Below, piece after piece: positions 8,505 through 41,080 of a stretch of 64,000 nucleotides of DNA (within the stretch, counting starts at the first letter, position 1; each line of letters starts with the position of its first letter). A program made the position numbers and the translations under genes. Below the pieces are notes generated by a model that was not told the DNA's origin, did not search any database, and worked only from the letters and a program-made list of their open reading frames with translations. Source of the DNA: Rhynchopus sp. YZ270_cl-10 (Eukaryota); NCBI GenBank assembly GCA_964035575.1, contig OZ037834.1, positions 744,001-808,000 on the forward strand, read 5' to 3'.

Positions 8505-10766
8505 ATGTGTTTTGGCGCCTCCCCCACCACGCCACCGATGGTTGTGTGTGAAAACGTTGGATGCACGTCACCTGCAGAGCTGCAGTGTGGGTACTGCAAC
8601 GAGATGTACTTCTGCAGCAAGGATGACTGCTTCGACTTGCTGCACCGTGAACCCGACCGTGCCGTGCACCGCAAGTCTGTCAGTGCGTATGGGACAACAT
8701 CGATGTGTGCCCTGCATCGGGGCCAAGAGCTGCGCCTCATCTGTGAAGACCCTGCATGTGGAAAAGCCTTGCTCTGCACGTCCTGCGTCACGACGGAACA
8801 CGTGGGACACACCACAACCGACATCCCGCAGTACATGGAGCGTGTGCGCGGAACCCTCTGCACACATGAGGCAGATCTGAGGAAGCGACGCACTGCTGCA
8901 GAGGAGGAGTGCCGTGTGCTTGAGGGATTGGGTGTCAGGTGCAAAGACCATCTGCAGCAGACAGAGCGCGGGTACCTCTTTATGGCGGAGGGCTGGACAC
9001 GCAGCCACATTGAGAGCGAGGAGGAGGTGTCGAGGAAGCTCCACACACAGCTGTACAGTATTGCAGGTGACGTGTCTGCACTGAAGGCGTTCAGCGCACA
9101 TGCGGACGACGTGGTTGCTACGTGCAAGGATGTGTGCCAGCTTGGGCCTGATGTCGCACAGCGCATGATCACACAGTCGCAGGAGATCATGCACACCATA
9201 GCAAGCATCCCACCGAACATGAACCGCCACCGCCTTGTGGGTGTTGTCTCCCCACACGCAGAGCTTTCCGTGACACTGCCTGAGTGTGTTGCGAGCCTGC
9301 ACGACGACCTTGCCCAGAGTTTGCGAGTTGGCGTGTCTCTGCCTGTGGAGGGCTTTGATGGCGAGATGCACAAGGTTGAGGTGGGTGAGGAGGACACAGC
9401 CGCAGACTTGCATCGGAAGGTGGTGTCTGCAGTGGGGTTGCCTGAAGAGGTGGTGCACGTGAACTACAAGGGCGAAGCGATTGTGGAGGGAGAGGACATG
9501 TGGCCAGCGCCGCTGCGTGCAGACAGGATCGTGGTGACGAAGACAACGAAGTACGAAGCCACCACTGCACTGGAGGCATTGGGTGTGCCAGCACACACAG
9601 AGTCGCTGCAGCGTGTGGATGATGCAAAGGTGGCCTGCTTGCTTCTGCAGGCGGAGGTTGCGACTGCAATTCCCGACAGGTTCCTGTCCGGTGCAATATT
9701 CACAACACTCGACCTGACCGGCACGGACTTGAGCTTTGTTACGACTGTTGGTGAGAGCTTTCTTCGCAGCTGTCCGAACCTGACAACAGCCAACATCTCA
9801 GGCTTGACTGGCGTGACTGCGATTGGGACGCACTTCCTGAGTACGTGCACGTATCTGACAGAGCTTGTCGCTGACTTGAGCCATGTGACCGCCATACCAG
9901 ACTTCTTTCTCTACCAGTGCACGGCACTGACCAAGGTCGACGTCACCAGTTGGAACAGCGTGACCTCGATTGGGAACAGCTTCTGTCGCAGGTGCGCATC
10001 GTTGGAAAGCTTCGACCTGACTGGGTTCGTGAATGTCACTGCCATTAAGGATGGTTTCCTGCAGGAGTGTGCGTTGCTGAGACGCCTCGACCTCTCTTGC
10101 ATGAGCAGTCTCGCCGAAGTTGGTGACGCCTTTCTGAAGGACTGCCGGACACTGACAGACGTGGACGTGTCTGGTCTGCCCAGTCTGGGTGTGATCGGGA
10201 ACAGCTTCCTCGATGGCTGTTCGGCACTGAAAACACTCAACCTATGTGGCTTCGAAGGTGTGACCGCAATTGGCACTCACTTCGCTTACAATTGCACACG
10301 GCTGCAAGCAGTGAGCATTTCAGGCTTGAACAGCGTGGCTGCGATTGGGAAGTACTGCCTTGCCGGGTGCACGATGCTGAAGACACTTACGATCACTGGC
10401 TTGACAGCGCTGCCTCGTATCGAAGACTCCTTCGCTTCAAACTGTGTGTCGTTGACGTCACTGAACATTGCTGGTTTGCGCAGTGTGACCGTTCTTGGGG
10501 ACGACTTCCTGTCCGGGTGCACGAATTTACGAGGACACGACTTCACTGCCTTGTCAGGCGTCACTGCAGTTGGGGCGAACTGCCTTCAGGGGTGTGCGGA
10601 CTTGGAACTGTTGAAGGAGCTTCATCGTGTTCAGACGGAGGAGAAGAAGCTACAGGAGGAGCTTGAGCGCGTTAAGGAAAACAAGAAGCGGGAGCTGCCT
10701 GAGCGTATTCAGAAGGAGAAAATGAAGCAGCAACTTGAGCGTGTTCAGGAGGAGGAGGAGAAGTAG
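8505..10766 (+). CDS. B-box1/B-box2/coiled-coil/ubiquitin-like/BspA-type LRR protein, copy 1 (753 aa, soluble charged tail)
   Basis: Two Cys/His clusters (CENVGC..CGYC..FC..DC..LH..H; CALH..IC..AC..LCTSC..EHVGH). Ubl-like VEGFDGEMHKVEVGEEDTAADLHRKV..GLP..YKG. About 12 repeats of the form LDLSxLxxVTxIGxxFLxxCxxL. The ATG context ACGAAAATG is shared by all four copies. Confidence 0.85.
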   Translation: MCFGASPTTPPMVVCENVGCTSPAELQCGYCNEMYFCSKDDCFDLLHREPDRAVHRKSVSAYGTTSMCALHRGQELRLICEDPACGKALLCTSCVTTEHVGHTTTDIPQYMERVRGTLCTHEADLRKRRTAAEEECRVLEGLGVRCKDHLQQTERGYLFMAEGWTRSHIESEEEVSRKLHTQLYSIAGDVSALKAFSAHADDVVATCKDVCQLGPDVAQRMITQSQEIMHTIASIPPNMNRHRLVGVVSPHAELSVTLPECVASLHDDLAQSLRVGVSLPVEGFDGEMHKVEVGEEDTAADLHRKVVSAVGLPEEVVHVNYKGEAIVEGEDMWPAPLRADRIVVTKTTKYEATTALEALGVPAHTESLQRVDDAKVACLLLQAEVATAIPDRFLSGAIFTTLDLTGTDLSFVTTVGESFLRSCPNLTTANISGLTGVTAIGTHFLSTCTYLTELVADLSHVTAIPDFFLYQCTALTKVDVTSWNSVTSIGNSFCRRCASLESFDLTGFVNVTAIKDGFLQECALLRRLDLSCMSSLAEVGDAFLKDCRTLTDVDVSGLPSLGVIGNSFLDGCSALKTLNLCGFEGVTAIGTHFAYNCTRLQAVSISGLNSVAAIGKYCLAGCTMLKTLTITGLTALPRIEDSFASNCVSLTSLNIAGLRSVTVLGDDFLSGCTNLRGHDFTALSGVTAVGANCLQGCADLELLKELHRVQTEEKKLQEELERVKENKKRELPERIQKEKMKQQLERVQEEEEK

Positions 10767-10959
10767 GAGGAACTTCAGCATGTTCTGACCGCCTTGCACG
10801 CTGTCTCTGACGCAGGTGGAAGCGCCTCGCTCCACACACAGACAAACAGCTCTGCACCCCCACTCTGCATCACATCTGTCACCATAATACGGGGTTAGGT
10901 CCCTCTTACAGGAGGATCTTTGTCAAACAACGTTTTCCCCATCCCTTCCCTCCCCTTTA

Positions 10960-11113
10960 CACACATTGTCCACATGAGACAGTGCCTCGTGTGCACCCAG
11001 CAAGATGGCTGGCTGAACACACGTAATAATTGTTAGTTCTTGCCCTGTTTCGGTCACTTCATTGCATCCTGTTTTTAAGAGTGCACAACGCATTCATTGT
11101 TTTGTGACGTAGT
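10960..11113 (+). repeat. Conserved spacer unit of the LRR/dynamin array
   Basis: CACATTGTCCACATGAGACAGTGCCTCGTGTGCACCCAGCAAGA...GTTCTTGCCCTGTTT...AAGAGTGCACAACGCATTCATTGTTTTG also occurs at ~17740, 22410, 23120, 43805 and 44480, and partially at ~37220 and 40671. Confidence 0.9.
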
Positions 11114-11246
11114 TTGTGAAGCTTGTGAAGCTTGTGAAGCTTGTGAAGCTTGTGAAGCTTGTGAAGCTTGTGAAGCTTGTGAAGCTTGTGAAGCTTGTGA
11201 AGCTTGTGAAGCTTGTGAAGCTTGTGAAGCTTGTGAAGCTTGTGAA
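11114..11246. repeat. 9-bp tandem repeat (TTGTGAAGC)n, ~15 copies
   Basis: Direct reading of the sequence. Confidence 0.97.
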
Positions 11247-18325: not shown

Positions 18326-20740
18326 ATGGGTGCCGCAAAGGGCGCGTCTCCCACCGCACCACCGATGGCTGAGTGTGACAAGGTTGGATGCACCTCGCCT
18401 GCAGAGCTGCAGTGTGGGTTCTGCAACGAGATGTACTTCTGCAGCAAGGCGTCCTGCTTCGACGCTCTGCACCGTGAACCCGACCGTGCCGTGCACCGCA
18501 AGTCTGTCAGTGCGTATGGGACAACATCGATGTGTGCCCTGCATCGGGGCCAAGAGCTGCGCCTCATCTGTGAAGACCCTGCATGTGGAAAAGCCTTGCT
18601 CTGCACGTCCTGCGTCACGACGGAACACGTGGGACACACCACAACCGACATCCCGCAGTACATGGAGCGTGTGCGCGGAACCCTCTGCACACATGAGGCA
18701 GATCTGAGGAAGCGACGCACTGCTGCAGAGGAGGAGTGCCGTGTGCTTGAGGGATTGGGTGTCAGGTGCAAAGACCATCTGCAGCAGACAGAGCGCGGGT
18801 ACCTCTTTATGGCGGAGGGCTGGACACGCAGCCACATTGAGAGCGAGGAGGAGGTGTCAAGGAAGCTCCACACACAGCTGTACAGTATTGCAGGTGACGT
18901 GTCTGCACTGAAGGCGTTCAGCGCACATGCGGACGACGTGGTTGCTACGTGCAAGGATGTGTGCCAGCTTGGGCCTGATGTCGCACAGCGCATGATCACA
19001 CAGTCGCAGGAGATCATGCACACCATAGCAAGCATCCCACCGAACATGAACCGCCACCGCCTTGTGGGTGTTGTCTCCCCACACGCAGAGCTTTCCGTGA
19101 CACTGCCTGAGTGTGTTGCAAGCCTGCACGACGACCTTGCCCAGAGTTTGCGAGTTGGTGTGTCTCTGCCTGTGGAGTGCTTTGATGGCGAGATGCACAA
19201 GGTTGAGGTGGGTGAGGAGGACACAGCCGCAGACTTGCATCGGAAGGTGGTGTCTGCAGTGGGGTTGCCTGAAGAGGTGGTGCACGTGAGCTACAAGGGC
19301 GAAGCGATTGTGGAGGGAGAGGACATGTGGCCAGCGCCGCTGCGTGCAGACAGGATCGTGGTGACGAAGACAACGAAGTACGAAGCCACCACTGCACTGG
19401 AGGCATTGGGTGTGCCAGCGCACGCAGAGTCGCTGCAGCGTGTGGACGATGCAAAGGTGGCCTGCTTGCTTCTGCAGGCGGAGGTTGCGACTGCAATTCC
19501 CGACAGGGTCCTGTCCGGTGCAATATTCACAACACTCGACCTGACCGGCACGGGCTTGAGCTTTATTACGACTGTTGGTGAGAGCTTTCTTCGCAGTTGT
19601 CCGAACCTGACAACAGCCAACATCTCAGGCTTGACTGGCGTGACTGCGATTGGGACGCACTTCCTGAGTGGGTGCCCGTCTCTGACAGAGCTTGTCGCTG
19701 ACTTGAGCCATGTGACCGCCATACCAGACTTCTTTCTCCACCAGTGCACGGCACTGACGAACGTCGACGTCACCAGTTGGAACAGCGTGACCTCGATTGG
19801 GAAGAGCTTCTGTCGCAGGTGCGCATCGTTGGAAAGCTTCGACCTGACTGGGTTCGTGAATGTCACTGCCATTAAGGATGGTTTCCTGCAGGAGTGTGCG
19901 TTGCTGAGACGCCTCGACCTCTCTTGCATGAGCAGTCTCGCCGAGGTTGGTGATGGCTTTCTGAAGGACTGCCGGACACTGACAGACGTGGACGTGTCTG
20001 GTCTGCCCAGTCTGGGTGTGATCGGGAACAGCTTCCTCGATGGCTGTTCGGCACTGAAAACACTCAACCTATGTGGCTTCGAAGGTGTGACCGCAATTGG
20101 CACTCACTTCGCTTACAATTGCACACTGCTGCAAGCAGTGAGCATTTCAGGCTTGAACAGCGTGGCTGCGATTGGGAAGTGCTGCCTTGCCGGGTGCACG
20201 ATGCTGAAGACACTTACGATCACTGGCTTGACAGCGCTGCCTCGTATCGAAGACTCCTTCGCTTCAAACTGTGTGTCGTTGACGTCACTGAACATTGCTG
20301 GTTTGCGCAGTGTGACCGTTCTTGGGGACGACTTCCTGTCCGGGTGCCCGAATTTAAGAGGACACGACTTCACTGCCTTGTCAGGCGTCACTGGCAAGCT
20401 CCCTTCAGGGGTGTGCGTACTTGGCACCGCCAAACCAGATGGAGTTGCAAGAGGAGCAGCTTCAGCTTCAGAAGCCGAAGAAGGAGGAACAGCACCCTGC
20501 AGTGCAGGAACACGACCATCTGGAGGAACAGCAACACAGAAAGGAGGCAGAGTATCGACTGTGGATGCAGCAGGCGCGGCGCCGATGACCTCTCAGACAC
20601 CAGTCTATTTTGGGAGCTTTTTTATAGTTACCATTGCGTTGTGTGTGTTTTCTCTGCTGACCGGCACGGGATTGAGCCTGGGCTTGAGCTTTGTTATTGC
20701 ATTGTGTTTGTGTTTGTGTGCGTGGATTTTTTTCCTGTGA
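18326..20740 (+). CDS. B-box/coiled-coil/Ubl/LRR protein, copy 2 (804 aa) with Ala/Ser/Thr stalk and C-terminal hydrophobic anchor
   Basis: Near-identical to copy 1 up to ..ALSGVT, then GKLPSGVCV.. and the hydrophobic end FGSFFIVTIALCVFSLL...LSFVIALCLCLCAWIFFL. Confidence 0.85.
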   Translation: MGAAKGASPTAPPMAECDKVGCTSPAELQCGFCNEMYFCSKASCFDALHREPDRAVHRKSVSAYGTTSMCALHRGQELRLICEDPACGKALLCTSCVTTEHVGHTTTDIPQYMERVRGTLCTHEADLRKRRTAAEEECRVLEGLGVRCKDHLQQTERGYLFMAEGWTRSHIESEEEVSRKLHTQLYSIAGDVSALKAFSAHADDVVATCKDVCQLGPDVAQRMITQSQEIMHTIASIPPNMNRHRLVGVVSPHAELSVTLPECVASLHDDLAQSLRVGVSLPVECFDGEMHKVEVGEEDTAADLHRKVVSAVGLPEEVVHVSYKGEAIVEGEDMWPAPLRADRIVVTKTTKYEATTALEALGVPAHAESLQRVDDAKVACLLLQAEVATAIPDRVLSGAIFTTLDLTGTGLSFITTVGESFLRSCPNLTTANISGLTGVTAIGTHFLSGCPSLTELVADLSHVTAIPDFFLHQCTALTNVDVTSWNSVTSIGKSFCRRCASLESFDLTGFVNVTAIKDGFLQECALLRRLDLSCMSSLAEVGDGFLKDCRTLTDVDVSGLPSLGVIGNSFLDGCSALKTLNLCGFEGVTAIGTHFAYNCTLLQAVSISGLNSVAAIGKCCLAGCTMLKTLTITGLTALPRIEDSFASNCVSLTSLNIAGLRSVTVLGDDFLSGCPNLRGHDFTALSGVTGKLPSGVCVLGTAKPDGVARGAASASEAEEGGTAPCSAGTRPSGGTATQKGGRVSTVDAAGAAPMTSQTPVYFGSFFIVTIALCVFSLLTGTGLSLGLSFVIALCLCLCAWIFFL

Positions 20741-20799
20741 GGATAAAACGAAAACGGAAATAAACCTTGTGAAATGAGAGTGGAGGTTTTTTTGTAATA

Positions 20800-21519
20800 C
20801 CGTCTTTTGAAAAATTATGGACCAGAAAAATAGGTCCATAAAAAAAAAAATCCCAAAAAGTCCATAATTGTTCTGGTCCATCATTGTTCTGGTCCATGTT
20901 ATTTCTGGTCCATCTGTGTTAGGCTTTTTTTTAACTTGTCCATTTTCAGACCCATTCCGAGCTTTCGGTACCGCACGTTGGCGGGGCATCTCGGCTTACA
21001 TGTGGCCCGGTAGACCCATTCCGAGCTTTCTCCCCACACAAGCGGTCGTCGCACGCGCTTCGCGCGCGCGACTCCCTGTCAAAATTCTGGACAAGTACAA
21101 AAAAACCCCACACATGTGTCGGACCAGAAAAATAGGTCCATAAAAAAAAAAAATCCCAAAAGGTCCATAATCATGGATAGAGAACGCGCGCCGACGCAAA
21201 AAAACAGAAAAAAGGACGCGCGTGGACGCGCGTCCTTTTTTGTGTTTTTTTTACCCTTTTACTCACGCGTACACGGGGTGGGGGGGGTGGGGGGAGTATA
21301 CCCCCCCACCACCCCACCCCCCCTGCTAGGGGCCGCAGTAGGGGTTTTTGGGTGTATTTTTAGGACGCGCGTAAAAAAAAAACACACACAAAAATACGCG
21401 CGTACGCGCGTCTACGCGCGTAGTTGCGTCCACGCGCGTTCTCTATCCATGCATAATTGTTCTGGTCCATCATTATTCTGGTCCATGTTATTTCTGGTCC
21501 ATATTTTTTCAAAAGACGG
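20800..21519. mobile_element. Tc1/mariner(pogo)-type MITE, TA TSD
   Basis: TA|CCGTCTTTTGAAAAA.TATGGACCAGAAA ... TTTCTGGTCCATATTTTTTCAAAAGACGG|TA. Confidence 0.85.
21172..21451. mobile_element. Nested MITE, CAT..ATG ends, 6-bp TSD, internal ACGCGCGT motifs
   Basis: TIRs CATGGATAGAGAACGCGCG / CGCGCGTTCTCTATCCATG. TSD CATAAT on both sides. Confidence 0.88.
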
Positions 21520-23599
21520 TATTTTATTCTCCCCATTACCACACACTTCGCAGAAAAACTCTTTTTATTGTTCCGTATCACTTGTGATACAGTTTCCATT
21601 GACTAGACCTGAAAAGGGGCAGCGCACAGGTGGTTCCGTGCTGGTTTTTCCACAGAACCGACACGTGGGGCGTGTCTCCCCAAATAGCAAAAAAGTACAT
21701 GAATATAAAATGTTGAAAGCAAAAAAGGAAGAACAAAACAATGTGGTTTTTCAAAGGGGACTATAAAATGCCCGAATCGTTAGGGGAATTCAAAAAATGA
21801 CATCCCCATGTCAGCGACCTGTCATGTATGTAGGGGGCCTTGCATATATTTACCGGTCCAGTGTCCGTAGTCCGCCGATGAACGGTGAGGCGGTTGCACT
21901 TTCAACTTTTCTTTTGTTTGTGTTTTTTTCCCCTACCCAAAAGCCTTGGAGTGCCGCTCATAATTTGTAAGGCTGCGGAGCAGCCGCACGGTGCGCTACT
22001 TTTTATTAGGGTAAGGTGACTAAGCACAAGAGGCTTAGGTTCATCTTATAAACTTTTCTTTTTTTAGTTTTGCCGATCCCTTTTTCTCGCCAGGCAGATC
22101 GGGTGAGTCCCAAAGATATAGTTTTGCGGTTTTGTGGTTTTGGGCTCGCGAGCTTTTTCACCCTTAAAAACAAGCTGTTGTGCAGGAGGCCGTACCTGGC
22201 ACTCTGTTTTCTCCCCCCTTTAAAACACTTGCGCAAAATTCAGATCTCACACTGTTTTGGCTGCGTTCAACGAAAGGTGTCCTGTTGGTGACACCGTTTC
22301 TATGGTCGACAACACCACTGTTGTGTTCGTCAGCTGTGGGTAGGAAGCAGTGCGAAAGGTGAATCTTTTCCAAACCAACGTTTCCCCTATCCCTTCCCTC
22401 CCCTTTACACACATTGTCCACATGAGACAGTGCCTCGTGTGCACCCAGCAAGATGGCTGGATGAACACACGTATTAAATAATTGTTAGTTCTTGCCCTGT
22501 TTCTCTCACTTCATTGCATCATGTTTTTAAGAGTGCACAACGCATTCATTGTTTTGTGACGTAGCTTGTGAAGCTTATGTGAGTTACCTGGTGTGCAAGC
22601 ACCCACCCCTTTGTCTTGGCTTCACTTTCCCTCCCCTCATTCCAACACACGGACATCTCCCCTGTCCGTGCACCGCTTAGTGGTCCTTGTCACCACCCTT
22701 TTTTGCGGAGTAAAAAAGGAAAAATAGCGCCGCAGGCAAAACAATATTTAAGGTACAGCCTCTCGGGTGCTCCTTTAGACCCTTCCCACGTGCAAAACCC
22801 TGCAGCATTTTTAGATTTTCCGATTTCTAATTTTCCCCCCCGCGGTTTGGAGACCGCGAAAAGGTACCACGCTATCCCTCTGCCATAAAACGCGTGATTC
22901 GCGAGCGGTTATGAACCGCCTCCGTTCTCTTACGGTACGGATCACCCATGTCCCACCCTTTGCATGAGCTCGACTAAGATGCGTTTTAGCACGTTTCAAC
23001 TACTCCTTATTTTTTACACAGGTGTCCTTTCTGTGACACCGTTTCTCAGGCTGCACAAAACGTGTTCGTCATGTGGGTTGGTACCCCGTGTGGTACGTTT
23101 CCCTCATTCCCTCCTCTTTACACATTGTCCACATGAGACAGTGCCTCGTGTGCACCCAGCAAGATGGCTGGATGAACACACGTATTAAATAATTGTTAGT
23201 TCTTGCCCTGTTTCTCTCACTTCATTGCATCATGTTTTTAAGAGTGCACAACGCATTCATTGTTTTGAAACGTAGCTTGTGAAGCTCGTGAAGCGCTTGC
23301 GGCACCCTGAGATTCCCAAAGGAACAATAACAAAAAGTAAAGCGCAAAATACCTCCTTTGTATCTCACCTGCCCCCCTCACACCCTTACGACAGCGACTG
23401 TGTCAGCCATTTTCCGTTCCCCACTCTTGAGACCCTTCTTCACAGCTGTCTGTGCTGCTGGTGGTGCATCACCACACAACCTCTGTTGCTGGGACAGGCA
23501 TCACCTCTGTTCAAGTTTCTTTGTGTCCGCAACACCACACCACACAGGTCCCTTCCTTCTCTCCCTACCCCTTTCTACCCCTCCTTCCACAAAACGAAA

Positions 23600-25993
23600 A
23601 TGGTTGTCGTAAATGGCACGTCTCCCACCACACCACCGATGGCTGAGTGTGGCAGGGTTGGATGCACGTCGCCTGCAGAGCTGCAGTGTGGGTACTGCAA
23701 CGAGATGTACTTCTGCAGCAAGGATGACTGCTTCGACTTGCTGCACCGTGAACCCGACCGTGCCGTGCACCGCAAGTCTGTCAGTGCGTATGGGACAACA
23801 TCGATGTGTGCCCTGCATCGGGGCCAAGAGCTGCGCCTCATCTGTGAAGACCCTGCATGTGGAAAAGCCTTGCTCTGCACGTCCTGCGTCACGACGGAAC
23901 ACGTGGGACACACCACAACCGACATCCCGCAGTACATGGAGCGTGTGCGCGGAACCCTCTGCACACATGAGGCAGATCTGAGGAAGCGACGCACTGCTGC
24001 AGAGGAGGAGTGCCGTGTGCTTGAGGGATTGGGTGTCAGGTGCAAAGACCATCTGCAGCAGACAGAGCGCGGGTACCTCTTTATGGCGGAGGGCTGGACA
24101 CGCAGCCACATTGAGAGCGAGGAGGAGGTGTCGAGGAAGCTCCACACACAGCTGTACAGTATTGCAGGTGACGTGTCTGCACTGAAGGCGTTCAGCGCAC
24201 ATGCGGACGACGTGGTTGCTACGTGCAAGGATGTGTGCCAGCTTGGGCCTGATGTCGCACAGCGCATGATCACACAGTCGCAGGAGATCATGCACACCAT
24301 AGCAAGCATCCCACCGAACATGAACCGCCACCGCCTTGTGGGTGTTGTCTCCCCACACGCAGAGCTTTCCGTGACACTGCCTGAGTGTGTTGCAAGCCTG
24401 CACGACGACCTTGCCCAGAGTTTGCGAGTTGGTGTGTCTCTGCCTGTGGAGTGCTTTGATGGCGAGATGCACAAGGTTGAGGTGGGTGAGGAGGACACAG
24501 CCGCAGACTTGCATCGGAAGGTGGTGTCTGCAGTGGGGTTGCCTGAAGAGGTGGTGCACGTGAACTACAAGGGCGAAGCGATTGTGGAGGGAGAGGAGAG
24601 GCGTGCAGACAGGATCGTGGTGACGAAGACAACGAAGTACGAAGCCACCACCGCGCTGGAGGCATTGGGTGTGCCAGCGCACGCAGAGTCGCTGCAGCGT
24701 GTGGACGATGCAAAGGTGGCCTGCTTGCTTCTGCAGGCGGAGGTTGCGACTGCAATTCCCGACAGGTTCCTGTCCGGTGCAATATTCACAACACTCGACC
24801 TGACCGGCACGGACTTGAGCTTTGTTACGACTGTTGGTGAGAGCTTTCTTCGCAGCTGTCCGAACCTGACAACAGCCAACATCTCAGGCTTGACTGGCGT
24901 GACTGCGATTGGGACGCACTTCCTGAGTGGGTGCCCGTCTCTGACAGAGCTTGTCGCTGACTTGAGCCATGTGACCGCCATACCAGACTTCTTTCTCCAC
25001 CAGTGCACGGCACTGACGAACGTCGACGTCACCAGTTGGAACAGCGTGACCTCGATTGGGAACAGCTTCTGTCGCAGGTGCGCATCGTTGGAAAGCTTCG
25101 ACCTGACTGGGTTCGTGAATGTCACTGCCATTCAGTATGGTTTCCTGCAGGAGTGTATGTCGCTGAGACGCCTCGACCTCTCTTGCATGAGCCGTCTCGC
25201 CGAGGTTGGTGACGGCTTTCTGAAGGACTGCCGGACACTGACAGACGTGGACGTGTCTGGTCTGCCCAGTCTGGGTGTGATCGGGAACAGCTTCCTCGAT
25301 GGCTGTTCGGCACTGAAAACACTCAACCTATGTGGCTTCGAAGGTGTGACCGCAATTGGCACTCACTTCGCTTACAATTGCACACTGCTGCAAACAGTGA
25401 GCATTTCAGGCTTGAACAGCGTGGCTGCGATTGGGAAGTACTGCCTTGCCGGGTGCACGATGCTGAAGACACTTACGATCACTGGCTTGACAGCGCTGCC
25501 TCGTATCGAAGACTCCTTCGCTTCAAACTGTGTGTCGTTGACGTCACTGAACATTGCTGGTTTGCGCAGTGTGACCGTTCTTGGGGAAGACTTCCTGTCC
25601 GGGTGCCCGAATTTACGAGGACACGACTTCACTGCCTTGTCAGGCGTCACTGGAAAACTGCCTTCAGGGGTGTGCGTAGTTGGCACCGCTCACTCAGCAG
25701 ATGGATTTGCAACAGAAACACCGTCAGAAGCAGCTTCAGCTTCAGAAGCCGAAGCAGGAGCGACATCGGACGCGGCACGAGAGAGTGGAGCAGCAGCCTG
25801 CAGTGCAGCAACTCTGCCATCTGCAGGAACAGCGACACAGGAAGGAGAAAGTTCATCGACTGTGGATGAAACAGGCGCAGCGCCGACGACCAGCCAGCTA
25901 CCTGTCGAAATAGGGCTCCTTTTTATATTTACCATTTCAGTTTGTGTGTTTTTGTGTGTGTGTTTCTTTCCCTACCCCAAATGGTACGAATGA
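23600..25993 (+). CDS. B-box/coiled-coil/Ubl/LRR protein, copy 3 (797 aa) with stalk and C-terminal TM helix
   Basis: Paralog of copies 1 and 2. In-frame deletion in the Ubl (GEERRADR). Ends IGLLFIFTISVCVFLCVCFFPYPKWYE. Confidence 0.85.
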   Translation: MVVVNGTSPTTPPMAECGRVGCTSPAELQCGYCNEMYFCSKDDCFDLLHREPDRAVHRKSVSAYGTTSMCALHRGQELRLICEDPACGKALLCTSCVTTEHVGHTTTDIPQYMERVRGTLCTHEADLRKRRTAAEEECRVLEGLGVRCKDHLQQTERGYLFMAEGWTRSHIESEEEVSRKLHTQLYSIAGDVSALKAFSAHADDVVATCKDVCQLGPDVAQRMITQSQEIMHTIASIPPNMNRHRLVGVVSPHAELSVTLPECVASLHDDLAQSLRVGVSLPVECFDGEMHKVEVGEEDTAADLHRKVVSAVGLPEEVVHVNYKGEAIVEGEERRADRIVVTKTTKYEATTALEALGVPAHAESLQRVDDAKVACLLLQAEVATAIPDRFLSGAIFTTLDLTGTDLSFVTTVGESFLRSCPNLTTANISGLTGVTAIGTHFLSGCPSLTELVADLSHVTAIPDFFLHQCTALTNVDVTSWNSVTSIGNSFCRRCASLESFDLTGFVNVTAIQYGFLQECMSLRRLDLSCMSRLAEVGDGFLKDCRTLTDVDVSGLPSLGVIGNSFLDGCSALKTLNLCGFEGVTAIGTHFAYNCTLLQTVSISGLNSVAAIGKYCLAGCTMLKTLTITGLTALPRIEDSFASNCVSLTSLNIAGLRSVTVLGEDFLSGCPNLRGHDFTALSGVTGKLPSGVCVVGTAHSADGFATETPSEAASASEAEAGATSDAARESGAAACSAATLPSAGTATQEGESSSTVDETGAAPTTSQLPVEIGLLFIFTISVCVFLCVCFFPYPKWYE

Positions 25994-27069
25994 TTCAAAT
26001 GACACCCCCCTACGGCAACGACCTGTCAGCGACGACCTGCCAATGCCTACCCTCCACGGCACACTATAATCGCGACTTTATGATTTTTTTTTTCCAAATT
26101 TACTCCAGGTAAGATCCTACTCATGTGCCTTCCGGAGGGGGGCTATACTGACAGGTCCCTGACAGGTCCTTGACACAAGGGGAGGTTAGGGGGTCAAAAG
26201 GGGTAAACAAATTGAAAAAAATGAGTTTCTGTTCCTAAGTGCTAAAAAATGCCCAAAACCAGAAAATTCTGTTTTAGCATCCGGGCAGTTCCACTGTTTC
26301 GAAATTTTTATTTATTTTGTTTTCGTTTTTTTGTTTTGTTTTTTGTATTGTAAGTTACCTTCGTCTGTGGGACATTTTCGAAAGTGAGACGTAGACCCCG
26401 AAAAATGGATTGTATTTATTTTTTACAACAGAATTCCACCTGATTTTTACCTCGCGAATAGGACCGTACAGGCTCCCAAGACGCGTCTATCCGAGGGGTA
26501 AAAATCAGGTGGAGAATAGCAAAAAAGGAACGAACGCGGTTTTATTTTGTATTAACGTTTAGGCAAGGGATACATACGGCCAAGAAGACACCCCCTTTTC
26601 TTTGGACGGTGGAGACCTTAGTATTCCCCCTTATTTTGACAAGTGCGCACACAGGGATATTGCTAACTATCGACCCCTTTAAACCTCGTGAGACGCTTTT
26701 TTTTTTTTTTTTTTAACTGTCAGCCCATATAATCCGTACCAACGAGGATAATGCTAATTTTAAGAGGTAAAAATTACTGGCTGTAACCTCACTAAACTTT
26801 TTGAAGTCAGCCCATGTATGTTCTGCATGCTACACACTTAGGGAAAGGTGTACTGGCTGTGCCCTAACAGACCTTTGTGAAACTTTAGTGACGATGCTAT
26901 ATGCATTATTTGCTAAAGAGGAAAAAAAAAAATAAACGAGTCCACTTTGTTATCATAACCACAACAAACACAAACAAAAAAAGCAAGGGTACTTCTTTAG
27001 CACCCTCTGTACCTTCTTTTCATTAGAAAAAGAATGTATATGAAACAATTTTTTTTTTGTAACCCCCTT

Positions 27070-28921: not shown

Positions 28922-31327
28922 ATGTCGGGAAAGGGAGTTGCCGTGCCAGAGGAGGTGATTAAATGTTTGGAGTCAAGTGAGAAGCTCAGCAAAGTGGTGC
29001 GTCAATGCAAGGACGAAGGGATTCACCTGGAAGGCTACGACTTTTCCGGTGTGAACAACACAGTGCGAATTGTTCTCACCGGCCCGCAGTCTGCAGGGAA
29101 GTCCTCCTTGCTCGATGCAATGCTTGGCTTTCCATTCTCCCTGATCCTCAGCGGCACAGGCACGCGTCGCCCGATCCACCTCGTGTGCGAAACCAAGCCC
29201 GAGGGCGATGAGGAATTTTCAGTGGGGGGTACGAGTTACGCGTCACGCTCAGAGATGCAGGCGGCGGTGAAGGCTGCGAACGGGTCTGTGTTTTCGGAGG
29301 AGAAGCTCGACGTCCGCATCTGTTCCAAACATGTCCCGAACATTGCGGTGGTCGACCTGCCCGGGTTGAGATCTGTGGGAGAAGCGAATGAATTGGAGCT
29401 GATTAAAAAAATCACGAAAGACCACCTGGCGGAGGAGTCCAACTATATTGTGTGTGTGATTGGCGCACCAAATGATGCAGCTTCGTGGGGAGAATTGAAC
29501 GACACCATGGGTCCGTTCCTCAAGGCCAACGCAGGGTGGGAGAAGCGAGTCATAATCATCGCCAACAGGTTTAACCTGCGGATGAACGAGAACAAGACCC
29601 CGGCTCTGTGGAACGAGTATTTCCAGAATATGCGCAACTCCGGGACGGTGTTCGTGACAACCCTCGGGTACAGCAAGGACAAGTTATCTGAGGAAAGCTG
29701 GCAGGAGGACCTCGGCACTGTGCAGGAGAGGGACTCCAAGTACCTGAAGGATTTCATGGACAGCAACAACCTCTTGCACAACTCCGATTGGGACAAAGCA
29801 AACTGCGAGATGATGGGTTTGGACAGAATTCTCGCCCGGATCAACGACCTGCTAAGGGAGGGAGCGCTCTCGAAGGCTCAGCACAACCTGAGGGATGCGA
29901 ACGAACTGACGAAGGACCTGAAAGCAAGCCAGCAGCGCATCCAGGACCAGCTGGCTGCAAACACGGAGGAGCAGATCATATCTTTGATGGAGAGGTACGC
30001 GAAGGAGCTGGCCACGCACCTTCTTGCACTGCACGACAACAGAAGCATCGATGACAACTCGCGCTACACGAAGAACGAGTTCGCGAGCCCGCCTCGCAAG
30101 AAGTACACCCCGAGCCACCTTCCTGAAAACCTCAAGTGCAGCTTTTGGGATGACATGGAGAAGGTTTCCTGCGACAGCAACATTCTGATTCCACACAAGC
30201 AGGCGGAGAAGAAGATGTCCTCACAAGAGTTGAAGGACAGGCTGAATATGGAGACAGCAGGGAAGGAAAATGCAGAGCGCGTTCTAATCATGGCACAGTG
30301 GTACATTCTGAGCGCGAAAGTGGAGAAAGTGACTCGTGAAGACATCTGGGCGAGCGCAACGAACCAGCAGAGGAGGCCGGACGTGAACAAACTGGTGTGT
30401 AGCGGTGCTCGGAACCGTGTGGCGGAGCTAGGGGATATTGTCATCCCGTGGATGGCAGAGATGCTGCACCAAATGGAGGTGACGTACTACAACTTCGTTG
30501 AGGGGCACCTGCTGTCAGAGGAAGGCAGTTTCGCAAGGATGGCGAACCCAGAAGCCGTGAGTTTCCACGAAGCCCTGAGGGATGCGATTTTCAACACCGT
30601 CTTGAGATCGAAGACAAAATCTTTTGCTGAGCGCTTCGGCAAGGAGGTGAATAACTGTCGCAAGTTCATGTCCCTCAACGCTGTAGAACGGGAGATGCTC
30701 GGCACGTTCATGGGGAACGGAAATAATGCAATCGTCATCCCGCAGGAACCAGCCAAGTATGAGCCGAGTGAGCAATTGCAAGCAGCGTTCAAAGATCCTG
30801 CTACGAAGTTGCAGGCGTCGGGGTCCGCAGTGCAGGCGGAGAAAAAGACTGACTTTGAAAACAACGAACGTCGCGCTGCCGTGCTTTCGCTGTTGCGCGT
30901 TGGGGACTCCAGCCAGAGTATTGTGAGCAAGCAGATCAATGCGGATGACTGGGTGTTGTCGGGGAACTTGAGTGCCATCAACAGAGCTCTGGTCGAAGTG
31001 ACGCCTGATTACGTGGAAAATATGTCCCAGCGACTGTACGAGTCCTCTGCCAGGTACGTGTGCAGTTGGTTGGAGATGGAGTACTTTGCGAATGTGATGC
31101 CACTGTTCACAGAGGATAATGACAACACGATCATAGGTGAGGTGAACAGCGCCGCCACTAAATTTATCCAAGCACATCGTGAACACCTGCTTCCCATGTT
31201 CGGTGTGGACGATGACAAACTGCGCAACCAGCTGGAGCTCCTTGAATCAGCACTGAAGGCTGCCCTGCACCATTCCTCCGTGCAAACTGCCCTGCTAGCT
31301 TCCGCAACGGCACGCAAGGCTCGCTAA
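28922..31327 (+). CDS. Dynamin-related GTPase (DRP5/Dlp-like), copy 1 (801 aa)
   Basis: G1 GPQSAGKSS, followed by LLDAMLGFPF..GTRRP (G2) and VVDLPG (G3). Atypical G4 NRFN. Long helical stalk. The ATG follows a CACAG acceptor-like site. Confidence 0.88.
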   Translation: MSGKGVAVPEEVIKCLESSEKLSKVVRQCKDEGIHLEGYDFSGVNNTVRIVLTGPQSAGKSSLLDAMLGFPFSLILSGTGTRRPIHLVCETKPEGDEEFSVGGTSYASRSEMQAAVKAANGSVFSEEKLDVRICSKHVPNIAVVDLPGLRSVGEANELELIKKITKDHLAEESNYIVCVIGAPNDAASWGELNDTMGPFLKANAGWEKRVIIIANRFNLRMNENKTPALWNEYFQNMRNSGTVFVTTLGYSKDKLSEESWQEDLGTVQERDSKYLKDFMDSNNLLHNSDWDKANCEMMGLDRILARINDLLREGALSKAQHNLRDANELTKDLKASQQRIQDQLAANTEEQIISLMERYAKELATHLLALHDNRSIDDNSRYTKNEFASPPRKKYTPSHLPENLKCSFWDDMEKVSCDSNILIPHKQAEKKMSSQELKDRLNMETAGKENAERVLIMAQWYILSAKVEKVTREDIWASATNQQRRPDVNKLVCSGARNRVAELGDIVIPWMAEMLHQMEVTYYNFVEGHLLSEEGSFARMANPEAVSFHEALRDAIFNTVLRSKTKSFAERFGKEVNNCRKFMSLNAVEREMLGTFMGNGNNAIVIPQEPAKYEPSEQLQAAFKDPATKLQASGSAVQAEKKTDFENNERRAAVLSLLRVGDSSQSIVSKQINADDWVLSGNLSAINRALVEVTPDYVENMSQRLYESSARYVCSWLEMEYFANVMPLFTEDNDNTIIGEVNSAATKFIQAHREHLLPMFGVDDDKLRNQLELLESALKAALHHSSVQTALLASATARKAR

Positions 31328-31522
31328 AATACAGAGGAAATGAAAACATATCTGAGTGTGCCCGAATTTTTGGTGTGAGCGATGTAAACACGACACAACT
31401 TATCCACAGAAAAGTTTATGATTTTGTTCTTGCACACTCCACAAAATCCGGTGCGATCAACGACAATTCTTTTTTTGATTTTGTTTCTTTCTTTATCAGA
31501 CTAGCTTAAACTCAGATAACAG

Positions 31523-31653
31523 TTTCTTTTTCTTTTTCTTTTTCCTTTTCTTTTTCTTTTTCTTTTTCTTTTTCTTTTTCTTTTTCTTTTTCTTTTTCTT
31601 TTTCTTTTTCTTTTTCTTTTTCTTTTTCTTTTTCTTTTTCTTTTTCTTTTTCT
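31523..31653. repeat. (TTTTTC)n polypyrimidine microsatellite
   Basis: Direct reading of the sequence. Confidence 0.95.
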
Positions 31654-33527
31654 TTTTTTTTTTGTGTTATCAAAGCATTGACGTATAGAAATGGAAAACG
31701 ACGGATGGTGCGTACCCGCTTTAGCGTATTGTTTTTCCACTAACACCACTCACATTCATAAGTGAAAAACACAAACCTTTTGCGGTGCGATAAACGAAAA
31801 AGTGTTTTCTTTATTTCATTTAACTGTCATATCCTGAAGTCGTTTTCTATTTATTTATTTTTTACGCGCGTACTAAAAAAAAAATCACGTATCCGCCTGT
31901 ATTTGCGACTCAGGGATTGTGCTTTATTCGAGCCTCTCCCAGGATGCAACATTCCTGGACCATATTCGGATCTGATTCGCTCTATCTGTGCTTATTCCAC
32001 CTGATTTGCAAAAAACGACAAATCCTCCCAACGCCTCCCAACGCCCTCCCAACACCCAGCTAGTTCAGGTGCTTATTTATTGACTGCGACGCGACATCTG
32101 AGGACCCCGCGGTTCATGATGCGACGTTGATCATCATGACTCTGACACCACTGAAGGCTCTTGGGACCTAACGGACAGAGTCTTGTCCGTACCCATTTTC
32201 CCCACGTACCCCCTTGCAAACATGTATGCGTTTCCCTCCCAAGCCTTCGTTCAGTGCATCGTGAGTTATTGCAGTGGCCTACTCTGCCCCGTCCTTGTAA
32301 CTGTATCCCATTTTCCCCCACCGCAACCCTTCGCTGTGTGTTGCACTCACCAGTAACACAAGCTCGACCCTGTCCCACCCCTTGTAACGTCCCTGTAGAG
32401 CTTGTACACATTCTCCCTCTCCCACCCATGTGTTGAGGACAGGGGAGAAGCTCTTAAGGGGCTTGCTGGTTTCAAAACCAGAACACGACTTTTTGCTGGT
32501 TTTTGGGGGGGTGTAAAAATGTGCTATTATAAGCGCATTTTTTTTGAAATGTTGCGCACCGTGGCTTCGCCAAAAAATTTTTGTTCAGCAAAATAGGAGG
32601 AAGTAAAATTTACAGAAACTGACGACAATTACTAACGATATGGTGCCATTTGCCTGATGTCAACATTTTTTAGAAATGTTGCGTGCCGTGGCTTTCGCCT
32701 GAAACCTTTGGGTGACATGCGAGAGGTGCTTCAGCAAACTCACATGCTTGAGGAAGAGACTCTATAACACAGCACTCTGCGATATCGTGCATCTTGCTTA
32801 CTCCAGTTCCCATGGTGTCCAAAAAGGAGTTGCCGTGGACACAATGAGGAGTTGCACAAGCATGGCTATCAATACAACACGCTCAATTTTTTTCTGATTT
32901 TGACGAACACCTCGTAGAAATTCAGGTGGAAAAAAATTTTTGTTTCTCAAACCAGCAAAACCAGCTTTTTTGTTTTTTGGACCCCCTTCAGAGCTTCTCC
33001 CCACAACAAACGAACACCAACAAAGAGACAGAAGTAACTTTTTTTGGTACACTGTTCACGAGAGGGCTTTGTATTTCAACTCTACTTTTTTTTAGGTCCT
33101 GGGCTGGACCTTAAACTGCATCCGTGGGTTCGTTCCTCCAGAAACTCTATGAAGGTGTTGACCGCTCGAACCGATGTCTCCTACCTGAGAGATTACAAAA
33201 CAGGAGGCGAGGAGGGGGTATGCGGGGCGTTTTGCCTTCAGGGTCTTTTTGTTTTTCAGCAACCCTGCCTCTTCTTTAAACTACTAGTGCATAGCCTTTG
33301 TCTTTCTTTTTGGGTATGCGGGACTCTCCCCCTTGTCCTCAGGGTGCTAAACGCCCCTGCCCCTGCCCCTTCCCTATGCAAAGTTGAACCCCTGAAGAAA
33401 ACTCTGTTTTTTAGATAGTGCTTGCCGAATTACTCCCCCTGACTCATTCACTCAGGAACACTAATAATTCGAGCGATCAACGAAAAAATTTCTCTCCTTT
33501 TCTTGTTTTCGTTTCTTTGACTGAATA

Positions 33528-33632
33528 CAGTCCCGGCCGATATCACGGACCGTCGAAATTATGGCCGAACCCAAAATCCGGCCATAATTTCGACATCGCA
33601 ATATTAACCGGCCGTAGTATCGGTCGGGACTG
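33528..33632. mobile_element. Tc1/mariner-type MITE (105 bp), TA TSD
   Basis: TA|CAGTCCCGGCCGATA ... TATCGGTCGGGACTG|TA, with an internal inverted pair TCGAAATTATGGCCG. Confidence 0.8.
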
Positions 33633-34420
33633 TATCTATCTAAACAAGTACGTGTTTTATTTGTTTGGTATTTTTTGTGGTTTTTTTTTGGTGTGTGACC
33701 AGGTGCCCAGACCCACGCAGTGGCACATGACCTCAAGTGTGAGTGACCCACACACGAGGGAGTGACTGTGTACCTGTGTACCTACCAAGTCGCATGACGA
33801 CGGGTACAATAAGTACCAGCCGGATATTGTGGACAAGGAGTCTCGGGAGGAGAGAGGCGAACCCGGCGGAGGGTTGAAGAGATGCCAGTGATGGAGGTTC
33901 CATCACTGCCAGCCTTACATTGTTCTTGATTCGGTTTTTCCACACCTCCACACCACCATCCACCCAGCCACCAACGCCAATAAAAAAAACCCCAAAGTGC
34001 TATTTTGTGCTATTTGGGGTCATCAGCCACACCAGTTTTGTTTTGTTTTTTTGTTTTTTTTTGGGGAGGGGTGAAAGTTTTGTGGTTTTTATGAAAAGGA
34101 TTGTTGGGGCATCCAGGTACAGATTTGACAGACGCAAACCCGCAAGGGGAAGCAACCGGCTGGGATGTCACGAAACTGACAGAACAGCCGGTTTTCGACC
34201 ACTTTTTTTTGTCACTTTTTGACGACTGGTCACAGCGTGCTCTACTCTTATAAGGGGTAGACGGCGTCAGTGCTATGCACACGCGTCACACACACGCTTT
34301 TTCAAACATTGCTTGTTTTGTTCACCACATCTTCACAATAAAAAGCGGCCTTGCCCCCCCTCTGTTTCCATTGCGACCCTGTTGTCCCAACACACCACAC
34401 TCTCACAGACAACTTGGAAG

Positions 34421-36808: not shown

Positions 36809-37880
36809 AATACCGCCCAAAAACCCGCACGGTGGCTCTTTCTGGCAAAATTTTTCCACGCTATGTACAAATTCCTTAACAAATCTCGGAGATATTGTCT
36901 ACTTTATTTTGTGTAATCTCCAGAAGGAATTTCGAAAACGCGGCTCAACATTATTACACACAAGTGAGATAAAGTACTTTATCATCGCAACACTCGTTTT
37001 TACAGCAAAATCCGCAACATGCAACACGTTATATCCCCATGAGAGAAAATATCGTACAATGCTATTGCATTCTGAAAAGCGCACTTCACACAACTCGGGA
37101 GCTGTGGTTCCGAGTTGCATAAAATTAATTGGTGCACTCGCTGTGCTCGTGCACCAAAGCGGAACCATAGCTCCCTCGTGATGTAAAGTGCACCTTACAT
37201 CATGCAATGAATAGTTATTAGTTCTTGCCCTGTTTCCATCAATCCTTTTTTTAAGAGTGCACAACGCATTCGTTGTTTTGCAACGTATCTTGTAAAGTTT
37301 GTGAAGCGCGTGTGAGTTACCTTGGTGTACAAGGCGTGAAAGCGCGGTTTCGAAACGTTCAATTCTGGCAATTCTGTCAGACGATAAAAAATTATCAACT
37401 TCTCATTTTCTGAGATAAAAAAAACAAAAAAGAATGACATCGGTTACTGGGGGGGTTATTTCTAAAAACCTGTCCCTGTTTCTCATGTTTGGAAAATGAA
37501 AGTTGTCAATAAATTTGCATTGGGAGTTTAAAAAAACAGTGGAGATTGCACAACTGTGGCAACACAACCGAGGCAACTACACGACTCCGACATTTTGTTT
37601 TTTTGGCCCCCTTTTTTTTACCAGGGGGTTTCAACTGACAGAACAGCCGGTTTTCGACCACTTTTTTTTGTCACTTTTTGACGACTGGTCACAGCGTGCT
37701 CTACTCTAATGAGGGGTAGACGACGTCAGTGCTATGCACACGCGTCACACACACGCTTTTTCAAACACTGCTTGTTTTGTTCACCACATCTTCACAATAA
37801 AAAGCGGCCTTGCCTCCCCTCTGTTTTCCATCGCGACCCTGTTGTCCCAACACACCACACTCTCACAGACAACTTGGAAG

Positions 37881-40661: not shown

Positions 40662-41080
40662 GGCTTTGCGAGTTCTTGCCCTGTTTCTATCACATTATTG
40701 CATCTTGTTTTTAAGAGTGCACAACGCATTCATTGTTTTGTAACGTAGCTTGTGAAGCGCAGCTCCCCAAAGGAACAATAACAAAAGTAAAGCGCAAAAT
40801 ACCTCCTTTGTATCTCACCTGCCCCCCTCACACCCTGACGACAGCGACTGTGTCAGCCACTTTGCCTTCCCGTGCCCACCACGTTCGGACACTGCACACA
40901 ACCCACTTTTGAGACCCTTCTTCACAGCTGTCTGTGCTGCTGGTGGTGCATCACCACACAACCTCTGTTGCTGGGACAGGCATCACCTTTGTTCAAGTTT
41001 CTTTGTGTCCACAACACCACACCACACAGGTCCTTCCTTCTCTCCCTACCCCTTCCCACCCCTCCTTCCACAAAACGAAA

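Follow-up and report, generated by a model that had tools for sequence, protein, structure and literature searches.

C-terminal ends created by frameshifts have been described in several systems. The duplicated human genes ARHGAP11B and NOTCH2NL have frameshifted C-termini (PMC8872073), and 45 of the 54 additions among the de novo C-terminal extensions of yeast are frameshifts; in Saccharomyces paradoxus PIS1, a frameshift bypasses the stop codon and adds 59 new residues with a predicted transmembrane helix (PMC4494051). Transmembrane segments can be born from thymine-rich (T-rich) non-genic DNA (PMC7005711), and hydrophobic tails encoded by T-rich DNA are sorted to degradation or to membranes (10.1101/2022.07.20.500724). 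In Trichomonas vaginalis, more than 190 of the 911 TvBspA proteins, which have been proposed to be surface proteins, have transmembrane segments (PMC2843621). In this study, we analysed a stretch of 64,000 nucleotides (nt) of Rhynchopus sp. YZ270_cl-10 (assembly GCA_964035575.1, contig OZ037834.1, positions 744,001 to 808,000; hereafter, the window), in which four tandem copies of a leucine-rich repeat (LRR) gene (starting at 8505, 18326, 23600 and 41081) alternate with three dynamin-like genes. Copies 2 and 3 lack 8 nt near the 3′ end, and their sequences make it, on balance, probable that they produce C-terminally anchored proteins whose B-box, ubiquitin-like and LRR parts would be flexibly tethered on the cytosolic side, with selection acting on the frame and the hydrophobicity of the new end. 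The four copies are as follows.

8505 to 10766, + strand: copy 1, undeleted and intact, with a Lys/Glu/Gln tail and without a hydrophobic tail (open reading frame (ORF) listing and hydropathy).
18326 to 20740, + strand: copy 2, 804 amino acids (ORF listing; Pfam PF00643 and PF13306), in the order B-box zinc finger(s), predicted coiled coil, putative ubiquitin-like region, BspA-type LRR, frameshifted stalk and two hydrophobic helices.
23600 to 25993, + strand: copy 3, 797 amino acids, with a body of the copy 2 type, the deletion, a longer stalk, a single hydrophobic helix and a 7-residue C-terminal tail.
41081 to 43563, + strand: copy 4, undeleted, with a long Lys/Glu/Gln tail, broken as assembled.

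The initial annotation of this DNA had reported 8 nt that are present in copies 1 and 4 and missing from copies 2 and 3, and its coordinates were correct: CAGTTGGG sits at 10567-10574 in copy 1 and at 43115-43122 in copy 4. The junctions in the two deleted copies read as follows.

20393 to 20394, + strand: deletion junction of copy 2, GGCGTCACTG directly followed by GCAAGCTCCCTT, inside the last LRR repeat.
25652 to 25653, + strand: deletion junction of copy 3, GGCGTCACTG directly followed by GAAAACTGCCTT.

The near-identical DNA past the junction is translated as LQGCA in copy 1 and as LPSGVC in copies 2 and 3; the paralogs differ by an 8-nt indel and read homologous DNA in two frames, as expected of a frameshift-derived C-terminus. 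Copies 1 and 4 carry the LRR register onward as VTAVGANCL, and since it is the old frame that continues this register, the old frame is, on this reasoning, ancestral and the deletion derived. A single deletion event in the common ancestor of copies 2 and 3 is likely. As in ARHGAP11B and NOTCH2NL, duplication was followed by a frameshift near the C-terminus that left the main domains intact and replaced the end; unlike in those genes, the new end, known here from DNA, is about 115 residues long, contains a predicted anchor and is common to two descendant copies.

The deletion was compared with contigs from six public runs, and support came from five of them (X1 to X5), belonging to two studies. 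The runs cover intergenic DNA, and no run recorded as RNA was among those listed, which has no bearing on expression. Contigs of X1, X4 and X5 extend across 20365-20594 and beyond and across 25624-26104 and beyond with 0 other letters and 0 gaps, both deleted tails are also present in contigs of X2 and X3, and the undeleted junction was seen as a separate 50-nt contig in X2, X3 and X4. No piece of X6 (share 0.31) was among the matches listed at either junction. Nothing direct points to a sequencing or assembly error; the bridging contigs begin 29 letters left of the junction, 2 under the 31-letter bridging rule, and one of the two read studies may itself be the source of the assembly. The same deletion, however, occurs in two diverged copies, and both junction forms occur in runs of two studies, so that an error is extremely improbable. 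The deletion, which the initial annotation had wanted confirmed in raw reads, is genomic and not an assembly error. The contig depths (undeleted:copy 2:copy 3 = 234:96:94 in X2 and 210:102:90 in X3) fit a ratio of 2:1:1 and were not used, since depth does not equal copy number. In X5, the contig depth falls from 841 to 216 at 20594, where two short contigs branch off; these (n = 2, agreement 0.61) had no match to the window and may be extra tail variants or amplification chimeras.

Past the junction, both new-frame tails remain open, to 20740 in copy 2 and to 25993 in copy 3, as had been noted, and each leads through a stalk into hydrophobic sequence. Hydrophobicity was taken as the mean over a 19-residue window on the Kyte-Doolittle (KD) scale with its usual constants. 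The elements of the new ends are as follows.

20393 to 20596, + strand: stalk of copy 2, old Lys/Glu/Gln-type coding DNA in the shifted frame, rich in Ala/Gly/Ser/Thr.
20597 to 20659, + strand: predicted membrane helix 1 of copy 2 (best 19-residue KD mean 2.34; model helix 480-500), homologous to the copy 3 helix by alignment.
20678 to 20734, + strand: predicted membrane helix 2 of copy 2 (KD mean 2.61; model helix 507-525), which reaches the C-terminus.
25910 to 25969, + strand: predicted tail-anchor helix of copy 3 (20 residues, KD mean 2.86).
20657 to 20696, + strand: patch in copy 2 copied from the LRR region (source 19541-19568 in copy 2 and 42262-42289 in copy 4; native frame LTGTGLSLGLSFV), absent from copy 3.

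The Ala/Ser/Thr/Gly stalk described in the initial annotation is present. The stalks of copies 2 and 3 span about 70-85 residues from the junction, and that of copy 2 consists of 64% Ala/Gly/Ser/Thr over 20420-20585 and is predicted to be disordered (AlphaFold, predicted local distance difference test (pLDDT) < 50 at model residues 419-480). The transmembrane prediction proposed as a check was made by hydropathy: the KD means reach 2.61 in copy 2 and 2.86 in copy 3, and no value elsewhere in these proteins exceeds 1.40 (best values outside the last 60 residues, 1.40 and 1.36). No other transmembrane-like or signal-like segment was detected upstream in either copy by the KD window, which is not a dedicated signal-peptide predictor. 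The 44 hydrophobic residues at the end of copy 2 were modelled as two helices (AlphaFold, pLDDT 56-70), a pair that the initial annotation had missed.

Tail-anchored proteins have a single hydrophobic helix that lies no more than about 30 residues from the C-terminus. Copy 3 has such an end, its 20-residue helix (KD 2.86) being followed by 7 residues, whereas copy 2, with two helices and a predicted C-terminal hairpin, lies outside the strict one-helix definition, although its end would work like a tail anchor. The proposed conversion of a soluble protein into a tail-anchored form is thus upheld as regards a frameshift-derived predicted anchor (by the deletion, the ancestral old frame and the KD values), whereas the two helices of copy 2 depart from it. 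As in PIS1, a frameshift adds a predicted transmembrane stretch; unlike PIS1, which was already a membrane enzyme and whose extension is polymorphic, a soluble-type protein would here gain its first anchor, and the paralogs have diverged by 18% since.

In the mechanism that we propose, the 8-nt deletion in the last LRR repeat would have shifted the Lys/Glu/Gln tail of copies 2 and 3 into an Ala/Gly/Ser/Thr stalk, and the shifted stalk would read on into T-rich DNA that encodes the predicted membrane helix. Post-translational insertion by a C-terminal helix is established tail-anchor biology. Since copies 2 and 3 have no hydrophobic N-terminal segment, their C-terminal helix would insert after translation, the LRR would face the cytosol, and the B-box and ubiquitin-like parts would stay there as well. 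In copy 2, a later template switch involving the LRR region would have supplied the second helix and thereby made a hairpin. The anchored copies would likely serve to keep a variable LRR binding module on a membrane, beside the soluble copy 1, which is the only one of the two undeleted copies that is intact as assembled.

The origin of the second helix can be traced in part. The patch of about 40 nt matches the LRR site of copy 4 over 20/21 and 17/17 letters (blastn, E 0.001 each) and holds an internal 12-nt duplication between these two blocks, and helix 2 consists of the end of the patch plus a stretch resembling helix 1. We infer that a template switch from the LRR region probably caused the copying. 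For the first helix, no donor was found in the window or among 149 collected proteins, and, of 597 pattern matches of the new-frame tail in metagenome contigs, none was confirmed as a relative. The statement that TG-rich former 3′ sequence encodes the helix is therefore correct as to the hydrophobic helix, whereas a former 3′ origin would have to be presumed, there being no donor in the window. The helix DNA has a thymine fraction of 0.39-0.43 and translates into a hydrophobic helix like the segments born from T-rich DNA elsewhere; unlike those new ORFs, the helix is grafted here onto a multidomain protein, and helix 2 of copy 2 is partly copied coding DNA. When non-coding DNA of the window was translated from 32,628 starts on the + strand, 1.2% of them reached a KD mean of 2.5 and 3.8% one of 2.0; a KD-2.5 helix is uncommon, yet not extraordinary for the non-coding DNA of this window.

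Two resemblances of the new ends were rejected. A homology of the copy 3 helix to the tail of P0007, one of the collected proteins (score 36; 48 of 5000 within-helix shuffles), was an after-the-fact pick, and it was further ruled out by the scores of its sister P0031 (23) and of eleven other hydrophobic tails (19-29) and by the lack of a blastp match. The likeness of GKLPSGVCVL to the C-cap spacing of the family (GK, six residues, VL) was treated as coincidence because its DNA is the LRR's own.

The initial annotation had further claimed that the anchor is kept by selection, on the grounds that three differences between copies 2 and 3 just past the junction are synonymous in the new frame (G-K-L). 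These differences are real but unrepresentative, being the first three of 34 changed codons, 8 of which are synonymous. Of 257 sites aligned between the tails, 47 differ (29 of 196 in the stalk and 18 of 61 beyond the old stop), whereas the body has 39 differences over about 2,050 nt; the tails have diverged by 18-30%, yet both are open. In neutral simulations, both frames stayed open in 17.6% of 6000 runs (16-18% overall), and an open frame combined with a hydrophobic core was kept in 2.6% from a mid-point start and in 1.4% and 7.7% from end-point starts. Of the three frames, the new one is also the most hydrophobic in each of the two deleted copies, and all four tail indels (3, 12, 27 and 57-63 nt, the last one beyond the old stop of copy 2) are multiples of three. 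The stop that the old frame has acquired in copy 3 likewise favours retention of the new frame.

A number of observations weigh against selection on the new end. The ratio of non-synonymous to synonymous substitution rates (dN/dS) in the new frame was 1.17 over 83 codons (Nei-Gojobori; Fisher p 0.86), with 1.10 in the stalk and 1.16 beyond the old stop. The substitutions fall on codon positions 1/2/3 as 18/14/15, the share of synonymous codons (8/34) compares with 21-22% under neutral simulation (P 0.37-0.40), and no significant conservative bias of the amino-acid changes was found by BLOSUM or hydropathy (P 0.19-0.40). The remaining two frames of the T-rich helix DNA are fairly hydrophobic too (KD up to 2.21), and the shifted tail is carried by only two copies. 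The composition of the stalk needs no explanation because shifted Lys/Glu/Gln codons yield Ala/Gly/Ser/Thr automatically; when the tails of copy 1, copy 4 and dynamin-like copy 3 were shifted in this way, they gave 51-59% of these residues. The simulation thresholds were set near the observed values with sites assumed to be evenly mutable, and the codon-periodic repeat DNA in which three of the four indels are located favours multiples of three in any case. Finally, the intact bodies of copies 2 and 3 prove little, because mosaic sharing between the copies suggests gene conversion. The comparison of the old and new frames that had been proposed gave no value below 1 (1.14 old, 1.17 new; third frame 1.29), and none of the three frames differs from 1, so that the argument from synonymous sites fails.

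These values near 1 in all three frames are also those expected if copies 2 and 3 were drifting or decaying paralogs, with the stalk and the hydrophobic end as by-products of the genetic code on Gln/Glu/Lys codons and of a T-rich flank, any protein made being dispensable or cleared because of its hydrophobic tail. An open frame on its own was kept in 16-18% of the neutral simulations, and copy 4 of the same cluster has, as assembled, lost its frame through a 34-nt deletion at 41337 (in the B-box region; missed by the initial annotation), which means that copies do decay here. T-rich non-coding DNA often gives hydrophobic C-termini, which are degraded through BAG6 in human cells (10.1101/2022.07.20.500724), and a high-depth repeat starts about 20 nt past the stop of copy 2. 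Drift would, however, have to keep the frame and the hydrophobic core together, as occurred in 1.4-7.7% of neutral runs, and to leave four of four tail indels in frame; in addition, the patch inserted in copy 2 lengthens the hydrophobic stretch without a stop, and the tails show no difference across five runs, the dead-end contigs of X5 excepted. We regard drift as the main rival, though rather unlikely. The claim of selection is moderately supported by the open frame with hydrophobicity (2.6%) and by the in-frame indels, given the choice of thresholds and the codon-periodic setting of three indels; it is not supported by the argument originally made for it. It is likely, from these sequence comparisons, that selection keeps the new tails open and hydrophobic without conserving their sequence.

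The old frame was then followed past the junction, where it ends at the following stops.

20586 to 20588, + strand: TGA that ends the old frame in copy 2; copy 3 has CGA at this point.
25677 to 25679, + strand: old-frame stop TAG of copy 3, eight codons past the junction and absent from the initial annotation.

In copy 2, the old frame is open for 63 codons beyond the junction. The peptide reads as had been claimed, whereas its homology to the copy 4 tail is firm only over a block of about 43 nt: the score was reached by 1 of 500 codon shuffles at the DNA level and by 84 of 2000 at the protein level. The old frame of copy 3 showed no significant similarity to the copy 4 tail (146 of 500 and 355 of 2000 shuffles, respectively), and the old-frame peptide had no relative among longer proteins (0 of 13 candidates, which is weak evidence). 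In the reverse situation, the artificially shifted tails of copy 1, copy 4 and dynamin-like copy 3 contain 15 stops in 328 codons, with one 75-codon open run in copy 4.

The long old frame of copy 2 would also fit a history in which the tails first diverged as old-frame sequence, and a deletion that appeared afterwards in one copy reached the other by gene conversion. The anchor would then be recent, and the similarity in the new frame would be no evidence of long selection. The homogenised body with its mosaic patterns (9, 6 and 6 sites) is consistent with this, as are several old-frame differences that are E/Q/K exchanges typical of the old tail. On the other hand, the old-frame dN/dS is 1.78 in the stalk, without conservative bias, three differences fall within 9 nt after the junction, although a recent conversion tract ought to be identical there, and an open hydrophobic new frame would be needed by chance in both copies. 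We therefore consider such a late transfer improbable.

A soluble tail could also be retained, alone or beside the anchored form, if a small intron running from a GT common to the deleted copies (20417 and 25676) to an in-phase CAG restored the old frame. This GT is a derived feature of both deleted copies, the undeleted ones having GG, in-phase CAGs number 8 in copy 2 and 12 in copy 3, where splicing would excise the old-frame TAG, and the organism appears to have GT-AG introns (~59426-59541). The usual donor consensus has a G at +5. The candidate donors GTACTT and GTAGTT lack this G, which is present in the GTATGC of the ~59426-59541 intron, and the candidate acceptors lie in purine-rich coding-type DNA; the number of CAGs is no evidence for an intron because they are old Gln codons. 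Splicing of this kind is very unlikely, and anchored products of copies 2 and 3 remain the explanation that we prefer.

The LRR proteins belong to a large family. LRR_5 (PF13306) was matched in all four copies at 83-112 bits (gathering cut-off 27.7; Pfam profile scan), the best fold match being 4fs7 (E 8.9e-09; structure comparison), and the B-box (PF00643) was matched in copies 1-3. PF00240 is annotated on many relatives, yet was not matched in the copies in the window; the segment between the coiled coil and the LRR is probably ubiquitin-like. A protein search with P0007 gave 258 matches, and the 120 matches listed were all on ENA contigs of 0.1-2.7 Mb, which presumably come from the same organism. 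The only close relative with an organism name is a Diplonema japonicum protein (35% identity), which makes a diplonemid-like protist the likely source, and no high-identity relative beyond the window's own cluster was found in a full-length protein search (candidates of 442-1407 amino acids).

The ends of family members were surveyed in 127 proteins (P0002-7, P0028-29 and P0031-149, leaving out the window's three, P0008, the distant P0009-25 and the truncated P0030). Most members stop shortly after the LRR cap. A window with KD ≥ 1.9 in the last 80 residues was found in 11 of the 127, all with one common cap motif:

P0049, P0072, P0077, P0082, P0083, P0086, P0093, P0124, P0127, P0129 and P0133: cap-motif group with hydrophobic tails.

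P0007 and P0031 have weaker, different hydrophobic tails, and none of these thirteen tails resembles those of copies 2 and 3. Since unrelated hydrophobic tails recur, the family tolerates such ends, which thus appear to have separate origins. Like TvBspA, this is a large paralog family with BspA-type LRRs and a transmembrane minority (11 of 127 at KD ≥ 1.9); unlike TvBspA, its proteins have N-terminal B-box and ubiquitin-like regions without a hydrophobic N-terminal segment, and the LRR would face the cytosol. In the papers searched, neither an anchor made by frameshift in a protist LRR family nor a description of the present family was found.

TRIM (RBCC) proteins combine a RING, a B-box zinc finger, a coiled coil and a variable C-terminal binding domain such as PRY-SPRY. 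The copies in the window resemble them in layout only (B-box, coiled coil and variable C-terminal binding domain); no RING ahead of the B-box was matched at E 0.01 in a Pfam scan, which places the copies outside TRIM/RBCC, and a BspA LRR stands where TRIM has PRY-SPRY. The differences between the four copies are mostly non-synonymous and concentrate in the first zinc finger and at LRR positions (copy 2 coding positions 1-150 and 1171-2067), and the ratio of non-synonymous to synonymous differences (pN/pS) over the six copy pairs was, from small counts, 0.17-0.32 in the middle region and 0.94-2.86 in the LRR. The three possible pairings of the copies are backed by 9, 6 and 6 mosaic sites, which suggests gene conversion between the copies. 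Such clustered, mosaic and non-synonymous differences look like those of diversifying receptors under gene conversion, and the pN/pS pattern of the bodies would fit a live family with a variable binding surface, though it is no voucher for single copies.

As regards the surroundings, the three tandem dynamin-family GTPase genes (28922-40661) are 95-98% identical and lie among the B-box/LRR genes; PF00350 was found in the two that were scanned. This pairing presumably recalls the TRIM and Mx immune clusters. Dynamin-like copy 3 (37881-40661) ends in a Lys/Glu/Gln tail that, together with its 3′ flank, is homologous to the corresponding part of LRR copy 1 (40282-40758 versus 10600-11130), and dynamin copies 1 and 2 end about 125 codons before dynamin copy 3, which looks like a tail swap between unrelated gene families. 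A high-depth repeat with inverted internal segments occupies 20760-21800. At 54511-60186, DHBP synthase, GTP cyclohydrolase II and four lumazine-synthase domains are fused in one ORF of the riboflavin pathway, which apparently extends through introns to a further lumazine-synthase-like segment (59542-60186); the lumazine-synthase-like reading frame shows a GT-AG intron-like break at ~59426-59541, which together with the gene content marks the window as eukaryotic. A short ORF at 2079-2408 on the minus strand may encode the C-terminal part of a DNA transposase, which it resembles.

Taken together, these features allow a broader and much more tentative reading, in which the C-terminus of the LRR family would serve as a re-wirable address tag. 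Anchors would have arisen at least three times independently (by the frameshift, in the cap-motif clade and in P0007/P0031), the Lys/Glu/Gln tail would have been swapped with a dynamin gene, and copies 2 and 3 would represent a TRIM-like intracellular receptor that gained an anchor, and then a second helix from its own LRR DNA, in an immune-like cluster of LRR and dynamin genes. We think it unlikely that all of this holds.

Each step at this locus is of a kind already in print, and the locus would be a good example rather than a new mechanism; what is new, judging from the alignments, is that the second helix of copy 2 is built from a patch of the gene's own LRR. If copies 2 and 3 do give rise to anchored proteins, the entire change from a soluble to a membrane-bound form can be read step by step at this locus, through the deletion, the stalk, the T-rich helix and the copied patch, and the 98%-identical soluble sister gene would provide a built-in control for how new anchors escape quality control.

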